From the sequence record MW250785: DNA of 64,000 bases; one strand, given 5' to 3'. Made by a program: the position numbers and the translations under genes. This DNA is from Escherichia phage UPEC03. Under the pieces are notes generated by a model. It had not been told where the DNA came from, searched no databases, and saw only the letters and a program-made list of their open reading frames with translations. Below are positions 24,561 through 53,342 of this stretch, one piece after another (the first letter of the stretch is position 1; each line of letters starts with the position of its first letter).

Positions 24561-24701
24561 TTACCCCAAACAGATTTTACATTTACAGAGAGGACATTCC
24601 GCCTCTTTAACGCGCAAGCGCTTTGTTGCTGTTCGCTTCGCTGTGTTGTGATCATACACATGCAAACAGCGATAACAGATCACCAATCGTTTAGCCGTCA
24701 T
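24561..24701 (-). CDS. small zinc-ribbon-like protein (46 aa)
   Basis: hand-found ORF MTAKRLVICYRCLHV...CPLCKCKICLG; start overlaps upstream stop. Confidence 0.35.
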   Translation of the reverse strand: MTAKRLVICYRCLHVYDHNTAKRTATKRLRVKEAECPLCKCKICLG

Positions 24702-25164
24702 AACCACCACCGCAACGAACATCACCTTCAATGAACAGTTCGCGGTTATCTCTCAGGAGATTGTATTTCTTTTCGAGTTCCGGCCCGAATGCGTCCGCGT
24801 CGTCATACCAGTCATAGTTATAACTTCCGGTTTCCTCGTCGTATTCCGGTTCGTCGCCGCACTCATTGAAGTGAACGATTTTAACATCATCCAGATTCAG
24901 TTCTTTCAGCTTGTCCCAGATGCGGGTTATTTCGACGCTATTACATCCGAACGCTTCCAGTGTGATTGTACCGTCATCATGTACTTGAGGAACACCCCAG
25001 CGCGGACGATGATGAATTTCGGTGATCATATCCATCAGCGATTCAACGTTTGACTCACCGTAAATCTTTGCAACTTCCTGTTCTTTACCAGGGCGGACAA
25101 GTCCTATCCCGATAATGAAACTACTGCTTGAGCTATTGCTCACGAACCCAGAACGGATCTTCAT
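24691..25164 (-). CDS. hypothetical protein, paralogue A with conserved N-terminal peptide
   Basis: 157 aa; first 16 residues MKIRSGFVSNSSSSSF identical to ORF 28599..29111 although six codons differ synonymously; acidic YDW motifs. Confidence 0.65.
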   Translation of the reverse strand: MKIRSGFVSNSSSSSFIIGIGLVRPGKEQEVAKIYGESNVESLMDMITEIHHRPRWGVPQVHDDGTITLEAFGCNSVEITRIWDKLKELNLDDVKIVHFNECGDEPEYDEETGSYNYDWYDDADAFGPELEKKYNLLRDNRELFIEGDVRCGGGYDG

Positions 25165-26016: not shown

Positions 26017-28263
26017 TTAGATTTTGACTTCTTTTTCTTCCAGGACGATTTCACATTCGAATGATGTGGTTTCCCAGACTTTCCAGAAATCGGATGGAAT
26101 ATTATCTTCTTTCGGAAGAATATCTTTTGCAGCGATAGAAACTTTGGTTTCTTCGAAGTCCAGATCCGCGAACCATGCATGGGCTACTACAACACCGTAC
26201 ATTACGCGACTTAAACGGGCATTCAGTTTACGGACTTCCTGAATCGTTGCCTTTGTCTGCTTATCAAGATACTCGACTACCTGATCTTTGTCAAGCGCAT
26301 CCAGTTCAGATTTCACCTGATCGTAAGCCCACAGGATAATCAGGTCGCCGTTGTTCAGTTTCTTCTTACCTTCGTCACGTTTCGCGACGGTAGCCGCTAC
26401 AGCAGGAAGGGAGGAAACACCCTTGACTTTCACGTTCAGTTCTTTCGACATGTAAACATCAGTCGATTCTGTGCGCTCAACCTTCGGAGAGAACCCGTAA
26501 TCACGAATATCCTGTTCAGACAGCCATTCACCCGCTGCATCACCAAAGCGCTGTTTCAGCCCTTCTGCGTTGCGCAGTCCGATCGCGTTGTCACGGAAGA
26601 ACTTCATAACCTTCTGACGGCCTTTCAGGATTTCCAGACGCACGTTATCAGTCACGAACTCTTTACCGCTTAACCCGCGAGTCATGCCACGGTTAACCAG
26701 AGGCAGAGAGGTAAAGTCTACCAGTACCGACATACGGTCATCACCGATTTTTTCCAGCGGCTTGATAGTCAGGCCAGAAGCGCGAAGGTTTTTCAGTGTC
26801 GGAATATCAGTTTCCAGCGGCAGAACTTTCACGTTCACGATACCATCTTTAACGATGGTGAAGTTACGCACCTGCTTAGTTTCGATTTTTTCCGGCAGAC
26901 CGAATTCTTTCTGTTTGCTTTCTGGGATAGTCACATACCCTTCCAGATCCGTGTTGATGGAAATGTTAGGACGGGAACTGTTACCCACCAGATGTTTAAC
27001 CGATACTTTGGTTGTGGTCTGGGTAAATTTCGGTGTCCAGACTTCATGCGCTACCATTTGCGCCGCCAGTGCTTTACGTTCTTCTGGGATTGCAGCGTTT
27101 GCGATCTGTTCGGTCAGTTGATCCAGTGTATCATCTTCTTTCTGTACAGTCTGACGGCCTGTGCGGTTATACGCCCAGTGCTCAGAAGACAGGTCGATCA
27201 CTGTGTCAGTTTGTGCCAGCAGTTCGAGCGCATCAACCAGAGTGAACGCGTTTTCGTCTGGAACCATGTTGTAATCAATACCATCAACGAAACGCTGTGA
27301 TGGATCTACAACAGCCTGTGCAATCAGGTCTTTCGCGTTGGAGTAGTCCTGTTTGGTAAAGCAGTTGTCATACGCCTTGATCAGACGGACATCACCCAGC
27401 TTTTGAAGCACTTTCCATGCCAGATCAGGGTTCATTGTGTGCAGTGCATGATAAAGCACGACATACAGAACTTGCTGTTCGCTGGCGATGTTCGGATCGA
27501 ATCCGTCAACATCATTAATCGCGTTTTCACCCAGCGCCCAGATGTTTTTGATGTGTTCTGGAACTAGCACAACACCGTTTGCAGCGTTCAGGACATACAC
27601 GCACCCTTCGTCCAGGTAGATCGCATGGGTAGCATCAGCAACTTTGACTTCGATACGCGCGGAAGTCTGCGCGGTGATGATTTCGTTAAATGCTGGTTCG
27701 TATGCGTCGAAACCTTCAACGAATTTGTGCAATGCGTTGGTTGCTTCTGCCATTTTTTCCAGCAGAGGACGGTTTACATAATAACCGTATTCCAGGAACG
27801 CGATACTGTTGAAAGTCAGTGGCAGAACCGCACACGCTTTCAGAATATCATCGGTACGCCAGCAGTTATCATAACCATCAGTCAGGAAGATCAGGCTGTT
27901 CAGGTTGCCGTTTTCAGATTGCAGATCGGTAGCGATTTCCGCAGCCAGATTCAACGGCTCAACAAAGCCAGTACAACCCGTAGGTTTCAGGTAACGGTCG
28001 ATAGCCGCGCAGATGTTAGACAGGTCAGAGACATTGCTAACCTTCTCACCACGGAACACCGTGCCGTAATCGCCTTTGCTGGAGAAGTACAGGATCGAAA
28101 CGGTGTCATCCTGTTTAACCAGACTCGCCAGATTTGCTTTCAGGTGTTTACGGATCTTAGGCAGTTCGTTGTACATTGAACCGGATACGTCACACACGAA
28201 AACGTGGTTTGTCGGGGTTGGCTTCGATACAGCGTTTTTGAATTCGATATTTGTGATTGACAT
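26017..28263 (-). CDS. von Willebrand factor A (vWA) domain protein
   Basis: 748 aa; N-terminal MIDAS motif VFVCDVSGSM and later FLTDGYDN; long C-terminal region with no motif recognised. Confidence 0.7.
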   Translation of the reverse strand: MSITNIEFKNAVSKPTPTNHVFVCDVSGSMYNELPKIRKHLKANLASLVKQDDTVSILYFSSKGDYGTVFRGEKVSNVSDLSNICAAIDRYLKPTGCTGFVEPLNLAAEIATDLQSENGNLNSLIFLTDGYDNCWRTDDILKACAVLPLTFNSIAFLEYGYYVNRPLLEKMAEATNALHKFVEGFDAYEPAFNEIITAQTSARIEVKVADATHAIYLDEGCVYVLNAANGVVLVPEHIKNIWALGENAINDVDGFDPNIASEQQVLYVVLYHALHTMNPDLAWKVLQKLGDVRLIKAYDNCFTKQDYSNAKDLIAQAVVDPSQRFVDGIDYNMVPDENAFTLVDALELLAQTDTVIDLSSEHWAYNRTGRQTVQKEDDTLDQLTEQIANAAIPEERKALAAQMVAHEVWTPKFTQTTTKVSVKHLVGNSSRPNISINTDLEGYVTIPESKQKEFGLPEKIETKQVRNFTIVKDGIVNVKVLPLETDIPTLKNLRASGLTIKPLEKIGDDRMSVLVDFTSLPLVNRGMTRGLSGKEFVTDNVRLEILKGRQKVMKFFRDNAIGLRNAEGLKQRFGDAAGEWLSEQDIRDYGFSPKVERTESTDVYMSKELNVKVKGVSSLPAVAATVAKRDEGKKKLNNGDLIILWAYDQVKSELDALDKDQVVEYLDKQTKATIQEVRKLNARLSRVMYGVVVAHAWFADLDFEETKVSIAAKDILPKEDNIPSDFWKVWETTSFECEIVLEEKEVKI

Positions 28264-28599
28264 TTAAATTTTCTCGTATTTGAATTTTTCTAAAATTTCG
28301 TTAACTTTATTGCTTACTGCTTCGACTGTACGATCACACCCGAACTTACGCGCCAGGAGTTCAACGTATTCATCCATCGTAGTGAGTTTGGATTCTGCAA
28401 CGTCAAACGCAAGCGCATACATTACTGGATTCAATACTCGAACGATTTGGAGAGTATACTCGTTCAGTTCAAAACGTTCAAGATATTTTCGCAGAGAAAA
28501 TACATCAAACGGTGCGGGGCGATCCTGGCTAAAGGGGATCGACTCCCCTAATGCATAGCGAGGCATAACAACACAGACTTCGGTTTTTAACTTATCCAT
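28264..28599 (-). CDS. hypothetical protein
   Basis: 111-aa ORF between paralogue B and the vWA gene. Confidence 0.5.
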   Translation of the reverse strand: MDKLKTEVCVVMPRYALGESIPFSQDRPAPFDVFSLRKYLERFELNEYTLQIVRVLNPVMYALAFDVAESKLTTMDEYVELLARKFGCDRTVEAVSNKVNEILEKFKYEKI

Positions 28600-29111
28600 C
28601 AGTGATGACTCTTTGATGTGTGTTCAAGGTTACGGAAGATGTTTCCATGTTCCAGTTGAGTTCCGATCGGGCCGCATTCATCGGAGTACGTGAATTCATA
28701 GATAAACACGCCGTCCTGATTGCCATACTTCGTGTTGTACTCTTCATACAACCACATTTTGATCAGAGCGTCTTTCTCTTCTGTGTCCAGATCGTACCAG
28801 TCTCGCCCGTCATACGCAAGCGCAATTTGAGGGTTTGAACGGTAGCGGGTTTCTGCGCTTTCTTCGGTTTCCCAGTCATAGCGTTTATCGTCGTAGAACG
28901 ATTCAAAGCTATTACCCAGATGACCGCCTAAGTCACGGTGAACATGATTGACCACTTCTTCCGCTGTTAACGGAGGATTGTAGTAACCGCAGTTCGGAAC
29001 GCAATCACCCATCATTTCGCGCAGGTTGTCGATATTAGTCGGATCTTTCGGGAACCGGACGATGAAACTACTTGATGAACTGTTGCTCACAAAACCAGAA
29101 CGGATTTTCAT
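28599..29111 (-). CDS. hypothetical protein, paralogue B with conserved N-terminal peptide
   Basis: 170 aa; N-terminus MKIRSGFVSNSSSSSF identical to paralogue A; RBS gagga. Confidence 0.65.
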   Translation of the reverse strand: MKIRSGFVSNSSSSSFIVRFPKDPTNIDNLREMMGDCVPNCGYYNPPLTAEEVVNHVHRDLGGHLGNSFESFYDDKRYDWETEESAETRYRSNPQIALAYDGRDWYDLDTEEKDALIKMWLYEEYNTKYGNQDGVFIYEFTYSDECGPIGTQLEHGNIFRNLEHTSKSHH

Positions 29112-43019: not shown

Positions 43020-44366
43020 TTAAAAGTTCTCTTCGACGAATGCAGCCAGTCGCCCACGATATACGGTATCCAGGATCACATGACTTGAATGACCGTACTC
43101 TTTAAGTTTTTCAACCGCATACACAAAGCCGTTGTTAACAGCAGTGTTGCGCGGGTTGTCAATCTGTTTAATGTTCCCGCATAGTATCAGAAGGGTGTTC
43201 TCACCGCAACGGGAAATGATGGATTTGATTTCGTGATTGCTCAAGTTTTGACATTCATCAACAATCAGAACCGAACCTTTACCCGGATCAGGATGCCCGA
43301 TTGAGCGCCCACGGAAGTAATACAGGCTAGGGAACTGGACAACGTTTTTCTCCAGCAGCCCTTCTACGTATTTGTCAACTTCCGGTTGATCCTTAAACAG
43401 AATGTTCAGGCTCGTAATACATGGTTCTACAGCAGGACGCAGTTTTTCGCCAAGAGTACCAGGTAAGAACCCGATTTCGCCCGACAGAGGGCTATCTGCC
43501 TTGACATACATCAGGTTTGCGAAGTGTCCCGCGTTTACCATGTGCATTGCACCAGCAACAGCCAGCATGGTTTTACCTGAACCCGCCGCGCCCATGATGG
43601 TCACAACGTCATTGTTTTTGTCCAGAATAGCATCAACGAATGACGCTTGCAGAGCATCGCGAGGCTGAATTGTTTTCATCAGCTTACGCTTTAACGCCTG
43701 TTCGTGCTTAATAGGCAACACTTCAAGCTGAAACTCTCCAGCATTCACCACACGCCCTACAATCTCACCACACGATAGAATGTATTGGTTAGGGTAGAAA
43801 TCCGCGTCAGGAAGCGATGAATACGTTATAACGGCAACAGGCCCGACATACTCCAGGACTTCAACAGTTTCCCAGAACAGAGGCAGGTCGATATAACCTG
43901 AATACAACACATCACTATCTTTCAGCGAGTCATCGCCAGTGTATTGAAGAACCGAACAACCTTTAGACATCGCGATCAACAGCATGTTAATGTCACGAGT
44001 CACCAGAGTTGCGCCCTGCTGAATACAAGTTGCAATGATCCGCGCATCCTGTTTATCCAGAGGGAATTCTTCGGTGCCGTCATAATCGACGATTTTCAGT
44101 GTTACGCTTTCCGGTACTGCTGGGTTCGATAAGTTTAACGAAACCCCTGTTTGGGTAATTGCTTCATAATTTTGTCCCAGGATTGCTTTGGACAAAAGCC
44201 GGATCGCCAGTCGTGCTTCATGAGCGGTTCGCTCTTTGCTTTTCAGGTGATCCAGTTCTTCCATCGTTGCAGCGGTGATAATGATTTCGCTGTCAGGTTC
44301 GATGTAAGAATAGATTGAATATGGGTTACTAATCAAAACATTGGTGTCTAATACGTATTTTGACAT
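43020..44366 (-). CDS. PIN-domain PhoH-like ATPase (PhoH2-type)
   Basis: N-terminal PIN-like YVLDTNVLI; Walker A GAAGSGKT; Walker B VLIVDECQN. Confidence 0.8.
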   Translation of the reverse strand: MSKYVLDTNVLISNPYSIYSYIEPDSEIIITAATMEELDHLKSKERTAHEARLAIRLLSKAILGQNYEAITQTGVSLNLSNPAVPESVTLKIVDYDGTEEFPLDKQDARIIATCIQQGATLVTRDINMLLIAMSKGCSVLQYTGDDSLKDSDVLYSGYIDLPLFWETVEVLEYVGPVAVITYSSLPDADFYPNQYILSCGEIVGRVVNAGEFQLEVLPIKHEQALKRKLMKTIQPRDALQASFVDAILDKNNDVVTIMGAAGSGKTMLAVAGAMHMVNAGHFANLMYVKADSPLSGEIGFLPGTLGEKLRPAVEPCITSLNILFKDQPEVDKYVEGLLEKNVVQFPSLYYFRGRSIGHPDPGKGSVLIVDECQNLSNHEIKSIISRCGENTLLILCGNIKQIDNPRNTAVNNGFVYAVEKLKEYGHSSHVILDTVYRGRLAAFVEENF

Positions 44367-48045: not shown

Positions 48046-48391
48046 CCTTTTCCTGTACAGACATCCGATTATAGCGGATCTCTTCGCGCTGTTCAACTTC
48101 TCTCACTGCTTCGGCTTTCTTTTCAGCGGTGAGTATGTGATGTACTACAGCGTTTCGGATTTCCCAGAGATATTCAATCATCTGCATATCTTCAACGGTG
48201 TGGTAGCCTTTCATATCACATTCAAATACAATTTCATCGCGTTCTGCCATTGCCACCTGTGCGGTAGAAGGACAAATAACCATTCCAGAGTATTTTTCAA
48301 TCAACGATTCCAGTGTACGCGGTTTTGCTGGAATGTCAATAGATACCGGAACCATTCGCATCGTTGAATCATTATGGGATTGGTAAATCAT
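48014..48391 (-). CDS. hypothetical protein
   Basis: 125-aa ORF. Confidence 0.5.
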   Translation of the reverse strand: MIYQSHNDSTMRMVPVSIDIPAKPRTLESLIEKYSGMVICPSTAQVAMAERDEIVFECDMKGYHTVEDMQMIEYLWEIRNAVVHHILTAEKKAEAVREVEQREEIRYNRMSVQEKDEAYEVYRRS

Positions 48392-48684
48392 CAGAATGTG
48401 ATCTCCGCAAACTGCATTCTACGCTCAATCGCATGGATAGCGTTATCACGCTGTTCTTTGTTTTCATATCCAGCCCAGGTAATCGGAGTTGAACAGATCA
48501 GGTGAAAAGTGATTGCTGGGTGTCTCTTCCCTTCAACAACGATTGTTGCATCATCTTCGATCCAGGTTACGTGATCCAGATTCACCGGATAGTTTCTTAC
48601 GGTAACAGTTTCACCAACCATAGGCGACACGTCCAGAATATCACGATCACGAACGTATGATTTAATACGAGATACGATTAACAT
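48391..48684 (-). CDS. hypothetical protein
   Basis: 97-aa ORF. Confidence 0.5.
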   Translation of the reverse strand: MLIVSRIKSYVRDRDILDVSPMVGETVTVRNYPVNLDHVTWIEDDATIVVEGKRHPAITFHLICSTPITWAGYENKEQRDNAIHAIERRMQFAEITF

Positions 48685-49838
48685 TATTTCAACTCCACTG
48701 CATATACATCGGTTTCAGGGGCTTTGTGTACGCGCATATCTTTACCACATACCGCATAAGCCGGACAGTTACGGCAACCGTTATGATCCTTGTTGCCCGT
48801 CAGTTCTTTACGGAACTGTTTTGTTTTCGGGTGTTCCCAGATATCCTTCACAAAATCTTCGGCTTCCAGAACATCCAGACCTTCTTCCCAGCCACCTTCA
48901 ACCCAACGTTCGGTAAACGAGCAAGGGAAGAACTGACCACGTTCATTAATGTAAGAGCTAAACATCGTCGCTTCACAGTCTTCGGCGTATTGCTTGTACT
49001 GTTCGAAGTTCGGGTGTCCCTCCATCGCTTCAACGAAAGCGGGGGCTGAACAGCTATCGAATCCAAATCCTACACCAGAATCGAGGCAATATTCAACAAG
49101 TTTTTTATATTGTTCGCGGGTAACGGTGTCCCAGTTCTTACCGCGTCCTTTTTGTTTCAGTCCCAGGAACACGATCGCGTTGACTTGTTTCAGGCGCGGA
49201 TCATTCTTCACGGCATCAACCACGTTAAACGCATCATCATAGGTTTTCGAGCTAACCATGAAGTGAAGGTTGATTTGCTGTTGTCCGGCTTCTGTCAGGT
49301 TCGCTACTGAGTCGAAAGCGACATCAAAACCAGCGTGTTTATAAACCGATACCGCAACAGCCCCAGCAACCGCCGCTAAACGCGCTGCAACGTCTTTTGA
49401 TACGTCAGCAATGGTAAGGTTCGGTACAATGCCTTTAGAACGCGCATACGCCATCATATCGAACATATCAGGGTTTGTTTGCCCCTGTGCATCAGCACCG
49501 AGTGCGCATTGAGTCAGCCAGGGCATTTTGTCGATGATTTTTTTGAAGTTGGCAAGATCCATGTTGAACCCGTTAGGGTTATTGGACTTGTAGCAGAACC
49601 CGCAGAGTTTACCAGCGGGACCATTACATTTGGTAGTGATCTCAACATCCAAGATTTCTGGGAATGGGGCATAGGTAGGATCAGTTTCGAACGATGTTCC
49701 CCAGCGAGCAAACTCACCAGTTTTAACGTTGAAATTGTAGTTGTACCAATTAGAGCGAGCGAAGCGCATATTACCCTGCTGGTAAATCATTAGCGAAGGG
49801 GCTTTCATTACAGTCTGTGCGCGGTCAATAATATCCAT
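48684..49838 (-). CDS. putative Fe-S / radical-SAM-like enzyme
   Basis: 384 aa; Cys cluster TTKCNGPAGKLCGFCYK (Cx7CxxC) near the N-terminus and C-terminal GCRNCPAYAVCG. Confidence 0.4.
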   Translation of the reverse strand: MDIIDRAQTVMKAPSLMIYQQGNMRFARSNWYNYNFNVKTGEFARWGTSFETDPTYAPFPEILDVEITTKCNGPAGKLCGFCYKSNNPNGFNMDLANFKKIIDKMPWLTQCALGADAQGQTNPDMFDMMAYARSKGIVPNLTIADVSKDVAARLAAVAGAVAVSVYKHAGFDVAFDSVANLTEAGQQQINLHFMVSSKTYDDAFNVVDAVKNDPRLKQVNAIVFLGLKQKGRGKNWDTVTREQYKKLVEYCLDSGVGFGFDSCSAPAFVEAMEGHPNFEQYKQYAEDCEATMFSSYINERGQFFPCSFTERWVEGGWEEGLDVLEAEDFVKDIWEHPKTKQFRKELTGNKDHNGCRNCPAYAVCGKDMRVHKAPETDVYAVELK

Positions 49839-49849
49839 GTATATAGTTC

Positions 49850-50056
49850 TCAGAATTTAATGTGGGATTGGAAAACAGCACGAGCAAGTGTTTCGCTATC
49901 GAACGGGATTGATGTTCCCTGGTCTTTGCTGTCAATGTTAACGCGCCAGAACTCACTAGACCCGTTTTTGGTGGAGTAATGCATCAGCGTTACCGTCTTA
50001 TTCTTTTCCAGGAAGGTGCGTTTATCAATCTCTGTTTTTATTTCGTGCTGCATCAT
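49850..50056 (-). CDS. hypothetical protein
   Basis: 68-aa ORF. Confidence 0.45.
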   Translation of the reverse strand: MMQHEIKTEIDKRTFLEKNKTVTLMHYSTKNGSSEFWRVNIDSKDQGTSIPFDSETLARAVFQSHIKF

Positions 50057-50379: not shown

Positions 50380-50580
50380 TTATTTTCCGTAAAGAACACA
50401 ATATTCTTTATATTTTTCACGGGCTTTTTCTTCATTACTAAAGGAAACTCCCATTCCAAAATCAGAACCTTCGAACGTAACATCCCACGATTCATACCCA
50501 TCTTCCGAATAATAGGAAAGTGTTATTTTACGATCTTCAAGAACAAGTTGTTCAACAACAATATCAATTTCAGTAGTCAT
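50380..50580 (-). CDS. hypothetical protein
   Basis: 66-aa ORF. Confidence 0.5.
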   Translation of the reverse strand: MTTEIDIVVEQLVLEDRKITLSYYSEDGYESWDVTFEGSDFGMGVSFSNEEKAREKYKEYCVLYGK

Positions 50581-52503: not shown

Positions 52504-52812
52504 TTAATCGAATTTTTCTGGCAACTGGTCTACAAGTGCTTGAGTTTGATGAAGTTCTTCACTCAATTTATCACGATAATGAACCAATTCGCGGGTTCTT
52601 GATGCGGAATAGCTAATGAGTTTATCAGCGGTAGCGGTGTAACCGTAACCAGCACACGCGATTTCCAGTTTTGCGTTATCGCCGTTAGGTACGCGGATAT
52701 GAGCATACGCCAGCAAGTTTTTAACCGCTTGCAACAGTTCATGATCTTCTTTGCCGATGATAAACTGGTTTGGTTCTGCTGAATCCATATACAGTTCTTC
52801 GTCTTTGTTCAT
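52504..52812 (-). CDS. hypothetical protein
   Basis: 102-aa ORF. Confidence 0.5.
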   Translation of the reverse strand: MNKDEELYMDSAEPNQFIIGKEDHELLQAVKNLLAYAHIRVPNGDNAKLEIACAGYGYTATADKLISYSASRTRELVHYRDKLSEELHQTQALVDQLPEKFD

Positions 52813-53342
52813 TTTGCAGCCTTATACATTTCCAGGACGCGGTTCATGTGATCTTGAGATTGAGGCACACCCGCGAAGTTCAGTTTGATGAAGAATTCCA
52901 GACGATCCTTTTTGGTGCATTCATCCAGCCCCAGGGCAGGTAATGAAATGTTTTCAAAGGCTCGTTGTTCGTGTCGTGGTATTTCGTCCCAGAACAAACG
53001 GGAACCGTCCGGCATAGGAATCCCAATTTCACCTTCGTAGACTTTGATAATCGTCGTCAGGCGTTGTTTGCCGTCGATCACTTCTACCCAATGGGTTTCG
53101 TTGAACTGACTATCAACCGCGATCGCAATGATACCGCAAGGGAAACCACTGATCAGGGTAGTCAGAAACGCATCTTGCTCTTTCTGCGTCCACACATAGG
53201 GGCGCTGGTAAGATGGATTCAGATCCAGATCTTTATTCTTCCACCAATGCAGATAACTCCCAACCATGATCGCGTGATCGCGACTGCGAAAAGTTAACTG
53301 ATCGCGGATACGGTTATGAACCGGAATATCATCTTTAGACAT
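52809..53342 (-). CDS. DUF262 (ParB-like / GmrSD N-terminal-like) domain protein
   Basis: motifs NPSYQRPYVW and IDGKQRLTT; 177 aa with no DUF1524/HNH partner domain. Confidence 0.55.
   Translation of the reverse strand: MSKDDIPVHNRIRDQLTFRSRDHAIMVGSYLHWWKNKDLDLNPSYQRPYVWTQKEQDAFLTTLISGFPCGIIAIAVDSQFNETHWVEVIDGKQRLTTIIKVYEGEIGIPMPDGSRLFWDEIPRHEQRAFENISLPALGLDECTKKDRLEFFIKLNFAGVPQSQDHMNRVLEMYKAAK

Follow-up and report, generated by a model that had tools for sequence, protein, structure and literature searches.

A radical-SAM/SPASM-type enzyme of T4-like phages and its likely partners, a large family of proteins that share a short N-terminal tag

A 64,000-nucleotide stretch of Escherichia phage UPEC03 (sequence record MW250785), hereafter called the window, encodes on its minus strand, at exactly 48684..49838, a protein of 384 amino acids (aa) with an ATG start, which is almost certainly an enzyme of the radical S-adenosylmethionine (SAM)/SPASM-twitch type. 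At diverse loci of uncultured phages, the gene of this enzyme is clustered with genes whose products share nothing except a short N-terminal sequence, here referred to as the tag, and two such tagged proteins are encoded in the window itself. The direct basis of the present analysis is the fold of the enzyme, its cysteine motifs, the tag family with its conservation and the genomic linkage of the two. It is likely that the tagged proteins are functional partners of the enzyme. As the best explanation of all observations taken together we favour, with moderate confidence, that the enzyme modifies the shared N-terminal tag of the phage proteins; a modification within the tag itself is slightly preferred over other sites, and any specific chemistry is at best tentative. 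The case appears evenly balanced that this constitutes a so far undescribed maturation system of large phages, in which one enzyme would place a radical-derived modification on a 16-residue tag carried by thousands of unrelated proteins.

The linkage emerged from 80 homologous loci of the IMG/VR database, for which open reading frames (ORFs) were called and clustered by all-against-all BLAST. Apart from the enzyme itself and opposite-strand ORFs overlapping it, one neighbour family was found to recur beyond close relatives, namely the tagged family, which is present at 61 of the 80 loci with 227 members in tandem arrays. No other neighbour was conserved beyond close relatives in these 80 loci, no partner genes of nucleotide or sugar metabolism recurred among them, and the Pfam contexts of two distant enzyme homologues did not reveal a recurrent annotated partner. 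At one distant locus, a gene located two genes downstream of that of the enzyme (L003, 10819-11826) encodes a protein with Pfam ARPP-1/ARPP-2 domains. In a non-redundant set of 83 diverse loci, at least one tagged gene lies within the flanks of 6-8 kb or less at 68 loci. The nearest tagged gene is located at a median distance of 316 bp, within 1 kb at 54 of these 68 loci, and downstream of the enzyme gene at 54 and upstream at 14 of them. All 251 tagged genes from the 83 loci share the strand of the enzyme gene, and one to eleven of them (median three) are present per locus. The loci thus have a layout like that of peptides that are ribosomally synthesised and then modified post-translationally (RiPPs), taken operationally as an enzyme gene clustered with genes that share a recognition sequence.

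The association is retained by the most distant relatives found, the loci L220 and L222, whose enzymes are only 25-29% identical to that of the window and whose tags have drifted along with them to MKIRTGFVTNSSSTSF and MKINNGYVTNSSSTSF (GFVTNSSSTSF and GYVTNSSSTSF), and it is seen on contigs that range in size between about 6.5 and 548 kb. Conversely, when IMG/VR was scanned with a degenerate DNA pattern of the tag, at least 120 stretches with an average length of 7.9 kb were matched, and an enzyme homologue is present in 45 of 120 among the matches listed; where a tag cluster has at least 5 kb on both sides, the enzyme is nearby in five of eight cases. Several distant sites carry tagged genes on large contigs such as IMGVR_UViG_3300037400_006466 (284.7 kb) and IMGVR_UViG_3300006226_001702 (198.6 kb). 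One large contig carries them at 127-133 kb and at 184.7 kb, with the enzyme in a stretch at 150-163 kb, and another carries them in three stretches at 32-62 kb. Given several separated sites per genome, the tagged repertoire is dispersed and not solely arrayed by the enzyme gene. Both families are essentially confined to phage contigs. Across 185,579 prokaryote genomes, the enzyme was detected at 16 loci only, nearly all of them on contigs of metagenome-assembled genomes. One of them, a contig of a 'Flagellimonas marina' assembly (NZ_JBHSCL010000010.1, 178,077 bp; L207), encodes an enzyme 96% identical to that of the window, equals the genome of this phage in size and is almost certainly a contaminating enterobacterial phage.

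The common N-terminus of the tagged proteins reads M-K-[IVT]-R-x-G-F-V-S-N-S-S-S-S-S-F-[IV]-[IV] (tag peptide MKIRSGFVSNSSSSSFIVRF), and only the first 16-18 residues are shared by the members, which are 70-390 aa long with a median of 135. The start codon is placed exactly five codons ahead of G6 in 212 of 216 cases. The first motif statistics were derived with a regular expression forcing G6, N10, S/T11 and S/T/A12, and were redone on a BLAST-defined set of 211 unique proteins. In this set, the consensus residue is present at R4 in 207, G6 in 198, F7 in 207, V8 in 197, S9 in 203, N10 in 207, S11 and S12 in 209 each, S13 in 183, S14 in 168, S15 in 201 and F16 in 198 proteins. When a subfamily was chosen by full-length similarity, residues 1-2, 4 and 6-16 were invariant down to 32% identity. 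In 419 distinct 5' ends, the amino acids are constant but their codons vary: serine is specified by AGY as well as TCN, arginine by AGA or CGN, and glycine by any of its four codons. This means that the tag is conserved as protein and not as a DNA or RNA repeat.

Beyond the tag, the family is extremely diverse. Past residue 20, 428 unique proteins fall into 113 BLAST groups (81 singletons), and a Pfam domain, a leucine-rich repeat (LRR), was recognised in only one of 144 representatives. A profile search of 1.84 billion cluster representatives returned 9,086 tagged-family proteins at E<=1e-3, which corresponds to about 9,000 clusters at 50% identity. The family is not covered by models of Pfam or NCBIfam, it is absent from PADLOC and the PDB, and in the open-access full texts that were searched neither the tag family nor its link to the enzyme is described; a comparative paper on jumbo phages does not mention radical SAM, and other phage papers merely list radical-SAM genes. 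The family includes LRR and Zn-ribbon-like members. The tagged genes form arrays among early-type genes, and their products are hypervariable, which suggests a role in the interaction with the host, as do the LRR and Zn-ribbon-like members; the proteins are probably effectors of this kind.

Both tagged genes of the window lie on the minus strand. The first, at 28599..29111, encodes a protein of 170 aa that begins with MKIRSGFVSNSSSSSFIV and belongs to PHROG 7397 (function unknown). Its tag, as delimited by the motif statistics and by selection at the protein level, comprises residues 1-18 (29058..29111) and is proposed here as the site of both recognition and modification. The 170-aa type represents a widespread subfamily with the C-terminal motif YSD(E/N)xG...LEHGNIFRNLxH..SHH. 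In an AlphaFold2 (AF2) model of this protein, residues 1-10 are predicted with low confidence and residues 13-20 form the first strand of a folded domain; the former is consistent with an accessible tail. The second tagged protein (157 aa, 24691..25164) begins with MKIRSGFVSNSSSSSFII, with residues 1-18 of the tag at 25111..25164 according to the motif statistics, and does not match any Pfam or NCBIfam model. It belongs to a widespread subfamily ending in G-A/G-G-R/Y-N/D-G (GAGRNG-like). Some records call the 157-aa protein a 'head-tail adaptor' through phrog_132; it lies in an early-type region, no other support for the label was found, and this is probably an annotation carry-over. A relative with a complete genome, phage mtp5 (175.1 kb), encodes exactly these two tagged proteins along with a single copy of the enzyme. 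In the window, the tagged genes flank a gene for a 748-aa protein (26017-28263, minus strand; PHROG 2426, function unknown) with an N-terminal von Willebrand factor A (vWA) domain (Pfam VWA_3/VWA_2/VWA). A vWA homologue with 27% identity (L117, 2807-4876) is encoded about 3 kb from tagged genes and a fragment of the enzyme gene on a 307-kb IMG/VR contig. The vWA protein may be a third component or a coincidence.

The enzyme gene was correctly placed by the initial annotation, which had left its strand unspecified and had ranked it among the largest genes of a region rich in tiny ORFs. Indeed, all other minus-strand ORFs at about 44.4-57 kb encode at most 200 aa, which makes it the sole coding-strand ORF of more than 200 aa in this interval. 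At the DNA level, the window shares 95% identity with Klebsiella phage phiKp_1 and about 94% with Cronobacter phage GAP161, which places the phage in the T4-like Pseudotevenvirus/Slopekvirus group (Straboviridae) together with RB16, RB43 and KP15. In the records of relatives, the enzyme gene is labelled 'hypothetical protein' or 'putative radical SAM protein'/'Fe-S oxidoreductase', and the bare identification as radical SAM is therefore not new; PHROGs assigns the protein to family 7293, labelled 'unknown function'. A search of 5.8 billion proteins yielded 1,640 homologues, many of them on contigs of 100-340 kb.

The proposal of a radical-SAM or Fe-S enzyme with an auxiliary cluster gained support from profile matches, the predicted fold and conserved cysteines. 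The search with hidden Markov models (HMMs) suggested by the initial annotation had a mixed outcome. The Pfam SPASM domain (PF13186) matches residues 288-359 with 24.5 bits, above its gathering score of 21.5, and the generic Radical_SAM model (PF04055) did not match at E<=1. The missing match is explained by sequence divergence together with a loop insertion, and a homologue with canonical cysteine spacing (P0092) has a precomputed PF04055 match. TIGR04085 reached 24.6 bits, which is under its cutoff of 27, and NCBIfam radical-SAM/SPASM models gave weak partial matches, all far short of their cutoffs. No NCBIfam model for anSME, FxsB, PqqE or similar enzymes matched at E<=1, and neither the enzyme, the two tagged proteins nor the vWA protein matched a PADLOC model. 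The phage Gp37/Gp68-type family (PF07505), which had been named as a candidate, was discarded, with no Pfam match at E<=1. The exclusion of the NrdG activase, initially based on size, holds on broader grounds. Glycyl-radical activases of the NrdG/PflA type have about 150-250 aa, lack SPASM and are partnered with a glycyl-radical enzyme, a description that does not apply to this protein, and its size, SPASM domain and fold ranking argue against this assignment. Membership in the anSME/AtsB family was likewise rejected, given that neither a family HMM match, nor two auxiliary clusters, nor a (C/S)xPxR substrate motif were found.

An AF2 model built from an alignment of 26 enzyme sequences, which reaches down to 46% identity and was also used to assess conservation, has a predicted local distance difference test score of 89.7 and a predicted template modelling score of 0.89. 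It consists of an all-beta N-terminal domain (residues ~9-46), a core of beta/alpha repeats (62-260) and a C-terminal cysteine-rich domain. The core was predicted as a partial (beta/alpha)6 TIM barrel, the fold expected by the initial annotation, and spans residues ~61-260 (49059..49658, minus strand) according to secondary structure, fold matches and alignment. Foldseek agrees with this assignment, with a match to SuiB (E 2.7e-9). The most similar folds are those of maturases that depend on a leader, among them SuiB, CteB and PqqE, and other good matches, namely BlsE, DesII, BtrN and viperin, act on small molecules. A search of the PDB with the single sequence returned noise only, and a profile search found BtrN as a weak best match (E 0.008).

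The N-proximal Cx7CxxC cluster noted earlier corresponds to CNGPAGKLCGFC and forms the SAM-cluster motif C71-x7-C79-x2-C82 (residues 71-82; 49593..49628, minus strand), supported by conserved cysteines and the alignment with BtrN. In the AF2 model, it follows the strand of residues 62-66. The 26-sequence alignment shows C71, C79, C263, C288, C306 and C358 to be invariant and C82 to be nearly so, and conservation down to 46% identity means that the cysteine motifs are not due to chance. The spacing, described as atypical from the outset, is real. A HMMER family profile aligns C71/C79/C82 to the CX3CX2C motif of BtrN with a 4-residue insertion, and the gap between the first and the second cysteine varies across the family (3, 5, 6, 7 as the commonest, 8, 10, 11, 12, 13 and 19 residues), with the canonical CX3CX2C present in 3 of the 115 top matches and in 11 of 59 IMG/VR loci. 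Family spacing and BtrN alignment thus identify Cx7 as a CX3 widened by an inserted loop of variable size, the site being canonical in other respects. In the usual place of the GGE motif, where beta-2 ends, the enzyme has G114-A115-D116, in which the glycine is invariant and the aspartate present in at least 90% of the sequences.

A second cysteine cluster near the C-terminus, which the initial annotation had taken to suggest an auxiliary cluster, corresponds to GCRNCPAYAVCG (residues 354-365; 48744-48779) with C355, C358 and C365. This was borne out for the invariant C358, and less so for C355, which is present in most members, and C365, which is restricted to close relatives; many homologues end at about residue 363, before C365. 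Conserved auxiliary cysteines that had gone unnoticed are C263 (in GFDSCS), C288 and C306. The latter two belong to C288-x12-G301-x4-C306, the CX9-15GX4C element of SPASM/twitch domains, which is invariant, as is C263 upstream of it. The family profile aligns C355/C358 to the auxiliary-cluster cysteines C232/C235 of BtrN. The full seven-cysteine SPASM signature for two auxiliary clusters, which also includes a distal cysteine, is not found, as the window protein has CX2CX6C and not CX2CX5CX3C. Together, C263, C288, C306 and C358 would fit one conserved auxiliary [4Fe-4S] cluster in a twitch-like arrangement, and a SPASM/twitch-like auxiliary Fe-S domain was assigned to residues ~261-365 (48744..49058, minus strand) by Pfam SPASM, TIGR04085, invariant columns and the BtrN alignment.

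The N-terminal domain of the enzyme (residues 1-60; 49659..49838, minus strand) was delimited by DSSP strands and invariant residues. In the AF2 model, it contains strands at 9-13, 16-21, 24-28, 33-37 and 43-46 and no helices, and it carries the motif RSxxYNYxFNxxTGxFxRWG, with S29, N33, G41 and G47 invariant. We infer that the substrate tag may dock on this domain.

We further infer the tag as substrate, the site of modification, the chemistry and the biological role. In the proposed mechanism, a [4Fe-4S] cluster held by C71/C79/C82 would cleave S-adenosylmethionine to a 5'-deoxyadenosyl radical, and a second, auxiliary cluster would be bound by C263, C288, C306 and C358. The flexible tag could dock as an extended strand, perhaps on the all-beta N-terminal domain, after which the radical would take a hydrogen atom from one residue of the near-invariant F7-V8-S9-N10-S11-S12 core and a post-translational modification would be installed, with the auxiliary cluster taking the second electron. 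One option for the chemistry is a two-electron oxidation of the C-beta alcohol of a serine to the aldehyde, as performed by anSME, BtrN or DesII, and this would be favoured by the serine-rich tag, the twitch-like single cluster and the similarity to BtrN. A second option is a cross-link inside the tag, either an aromatic-X-X cyclophane or a Ser-O ether; the cyclophane is plausible because the substitutions tolerated are F/Y at position 7 and, at position 9, S/T. We rank serine oxidation and the cross-link about equally, with epimerisation as a third possibility. The maturation of the tagged effectors would depend on this modification.

Several observations weigh against the proposal that the enzyme modifies the tag. 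The link between enzyme and substrate is drawn from gene neighbourhood alone. In the window and its own lineage, tagged genes and enzyme gene share a strand but are not adjacent, with 20-24 kb between them; 15 of the 83 loci have no tagged gene in their flanks, and about half of the tag clusters with adequate flanks lack an enzyme gene nearby. Among 50,697 records of cultured phages, the enzyme is present in 173 and the 170-aa protein in 174, all from one clade, so that this co-occurrence only reflects shared ancestry and does not count as independent evidence. At 70-390 aa, the putative substrates would be folded proteins and not short peptides, an unusual choice for enzymes of this class. 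A canonical winged-helix RiPP recognition element (RRE) was not recognised in the enzyme, whose five N-terminal strands are without a helix and did not match the PqqD model of Pfam. The chemistry is a guess, with no specific NCBIfam match of the enzyme and no (C/S)xPxR motif in the tag. Finally, the enzyme is dispensable, at least in the laboratory, because a homing endonuclease splits its gene in some relatives. RB43 (NC_007023.1), leB (KX431559.1), IME-CF2, CPRSB and Kpn35c1, in which the gene gave two separate partial matches or has been annotated as two or three ORFs, are natural split or knock-out variants; in Kpn35c1, a GIY-YIG homing endonuclease is reported to be inserted in the enzyme gene (PMC9960720).

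The alternative that survives best, although we regard it as rather unlikely, is that the tag serves only as a leader or docking peptide, with the modification placed in the variable body, or that the tagged proteins are adaptors through which the enzyme would reach other targets. Tandem arrays beside a radical-SAM/SPASM gene, with products that are conserved at the N-terminus and hypervariable in the rest, are the classic RiPP layout, and the leader dependence of the maturases with the closest folds points in the same direction. However, the tag is stricter than typical leaders (R4, F7, N10, S11 and S12 each in 207-209 of 211 proteins), it begins at Met1 and lacks a recognisable cleavage site, and the 113 groups of variable bodies do not share a common residue or motif that could be a uniform radical target. 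Moreover, the prediction of residues 13-20 as part of a folded domain and the lack of a canonical RRE do not fit a leader well.

It is also unlikely that the linkage is incidental, with the enzyme acting on a small molecule, a nucleotide, DNA, tRNA or a host protein, for example a Ser-type sulfatase. In that case, both genes would merely share hyperplastic early regions, and the tag would serve targeting, packaging, proteolysis or stability, an equally unlikely assumption. Klebsiella hosts possess a Ser-type sulfatase system. The distance of 20-24 kb in the window, the 15 loci without a tagged gene nearby, and the good fold matches to BlsE, DesII, BtrN and viperin would all agree with such a scenario. 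On the other hand, the tagged family is the sole neighbour family across diverse loci, always on the same strand and often only a few hundred bp away, and its linkage extends to the most divergent enzymes and over the whole range of contig sizes. Recurrent nucleotide or sugar partner genes, a sulfatase motif, or a match to a defence or anti-defence model were not found, which further argues against an unrelated substrate.

We consider it very improbable that the ORF encodes merely an inactive remnant, or an Fe-S protein without catalytic function, with a degenerate radical-SAM fold that has lost the ability to cleave SAM. The lack of a Pfam Radical_SAM match, the non-canonical motif, GAD in place of GGE and the split gene of some relatives could be taken as signs of decay. 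However, the motif and the auxiliary cysteines are conserved across the family of more than 1,600 homologues and down to about 45% identity, C82 being nearly invariant, members with canonical spacing exist, strong purifying selection acts along the whole length, and enlarged loops are present in other active radical-SAM enzymes. Finally, T4-like phages shuffle early genes at conserved short sequences, and the motif always lies at the very start of genes, but the notion that the shared 5' ends are a DNA or RNA element, such as the boundary of a recombination cassette or a translation-initiation module, instead of a protein motif has next to no chance of being correct, and a DNA-level repeat was effectively refuted by the variable third positions and fixed amino acids of the 419 distinct 5' ends.

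Some neighbouring genes of the window were inspected as well. A 97-aa ORF (48391-48684, minus strand) overlaps the stop codon of the enzyme gene (ATGA) and is conserved in the close clade only; the overlap suggests translational coupling. It has no Pfam match and no homologues in the diverse enzyme loci. Just upstream of the enzyme gene, two small ORFs of 68 and 66 aa (49850-50056 and 50380-50580, both minus strand) are paralogues (32% identity, E 8e-7), and their homologues are absent from the diverse enzyme loci. A 177-aa protein (52809-53342, minus strand) consists of a GmrSD_N domain only (DUF262, ParB-like; Pfam E 6.9e-20), the N-terminal half of a type IV restriction enzyme, and is called 'DefenseFinder protein' in one related record. 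A 448-aa fusion of PIN and PhoH domains (43020-44366, minus strand) is annotated as 'PhoH family' in relatives.

If the enzyme does act on the tag, two sizeable families of 'dark matter' in phages would gain a function, namely PHROG 7293, whose homologues number more than 1,600, and the tagged proteins, and radical-SAM/SPASM maturation would extend from short peptides to full-size proteins with a portable N-terminal tag. Phages would then possess a modification-dependent repertoire of hypervariable proteins, likely located at the phage-host interface. A short recognised tag that tolerates more than 100 unrelated fusion partners would also be an attractive handle for protein engineering. The enzyme and the two tagged proteins are encoded by cultivable phages of Klebsiella, Enterobacter and E. 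coli (RB16, RB43, KP15), which makes the proposal directly testable. Should the link prove wrong, all that is left is a putative radical-SAM gene of an ordinary kind, which had been annotated before and whose cluster loop is widened.

Among known systems, the radical-SAM/SPASM peptide maturases SuiB/StrB, SkfB, PqqE, CteB and TigE are the obvious reference, although their identity to the phage enzyme is 14-16% and none of their family HMMs matches it. These maturases contain a PqqD-like RRE and modify short leader-core peptides, whereas the phage enzyme has an all-beta N-terminal domain, apparently only one conserved auxiliary cluster and a widened SAM loop, and its putative substrates are folded proteins of 70-390 aa with a 16-residue tag starting at Met1. 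Enlarged SAM-cluster loops are known from other radical-SAM enzymes, for example CX14CX2C of Burkholderia multivorans QueE and CX5CX2C of HmdB, which resemble the phage enzyme in that the first cysteine loop is enlarged while the CX2C and the barrel are kept. BtrN is similar in its SAM-cluster cysteines and C-terminal CxxC, which align with those of the phage enzyme, and in its single, twitch-like auxiliary cluster, but its substrate is an aminocyclitol, unlike the protein tag proposed here. The enzyme anSME oxidises a protein serine to formylglycine. It carries two auxiliary clusters and requires the substrate motif (C/S)xPxR, which is missing from the tag, though the latter is serine-rich. 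Three-residue cyclophane enzymes of the XyeB/GrrM/FxsB type act on aromatic-X-X motifs; the F7-V8-S9 of the tag, with F/Y and S/T tolerated, is a lead only in this respect, and NCBIfam FxsB or XYE models did not match the enzyme at E<=1. On the substrate side, the internal proteins of T4 share an N-terminal capsid-targeting sequence and are encoded by hypervariable tandem loci. The tagged proteins are alike in having hypervariable tandem loci with only a short N-terminus in common; they differ in the sequence itself and in their link to a radical-SAM gene, with no link to the prohead protease seen here. What is new in comparison with these systems is the candidate substrate family with its two members in the window, and a RiPP-like logic that is phage-borne and acts on whole proteins via a tag beginning at Met1.

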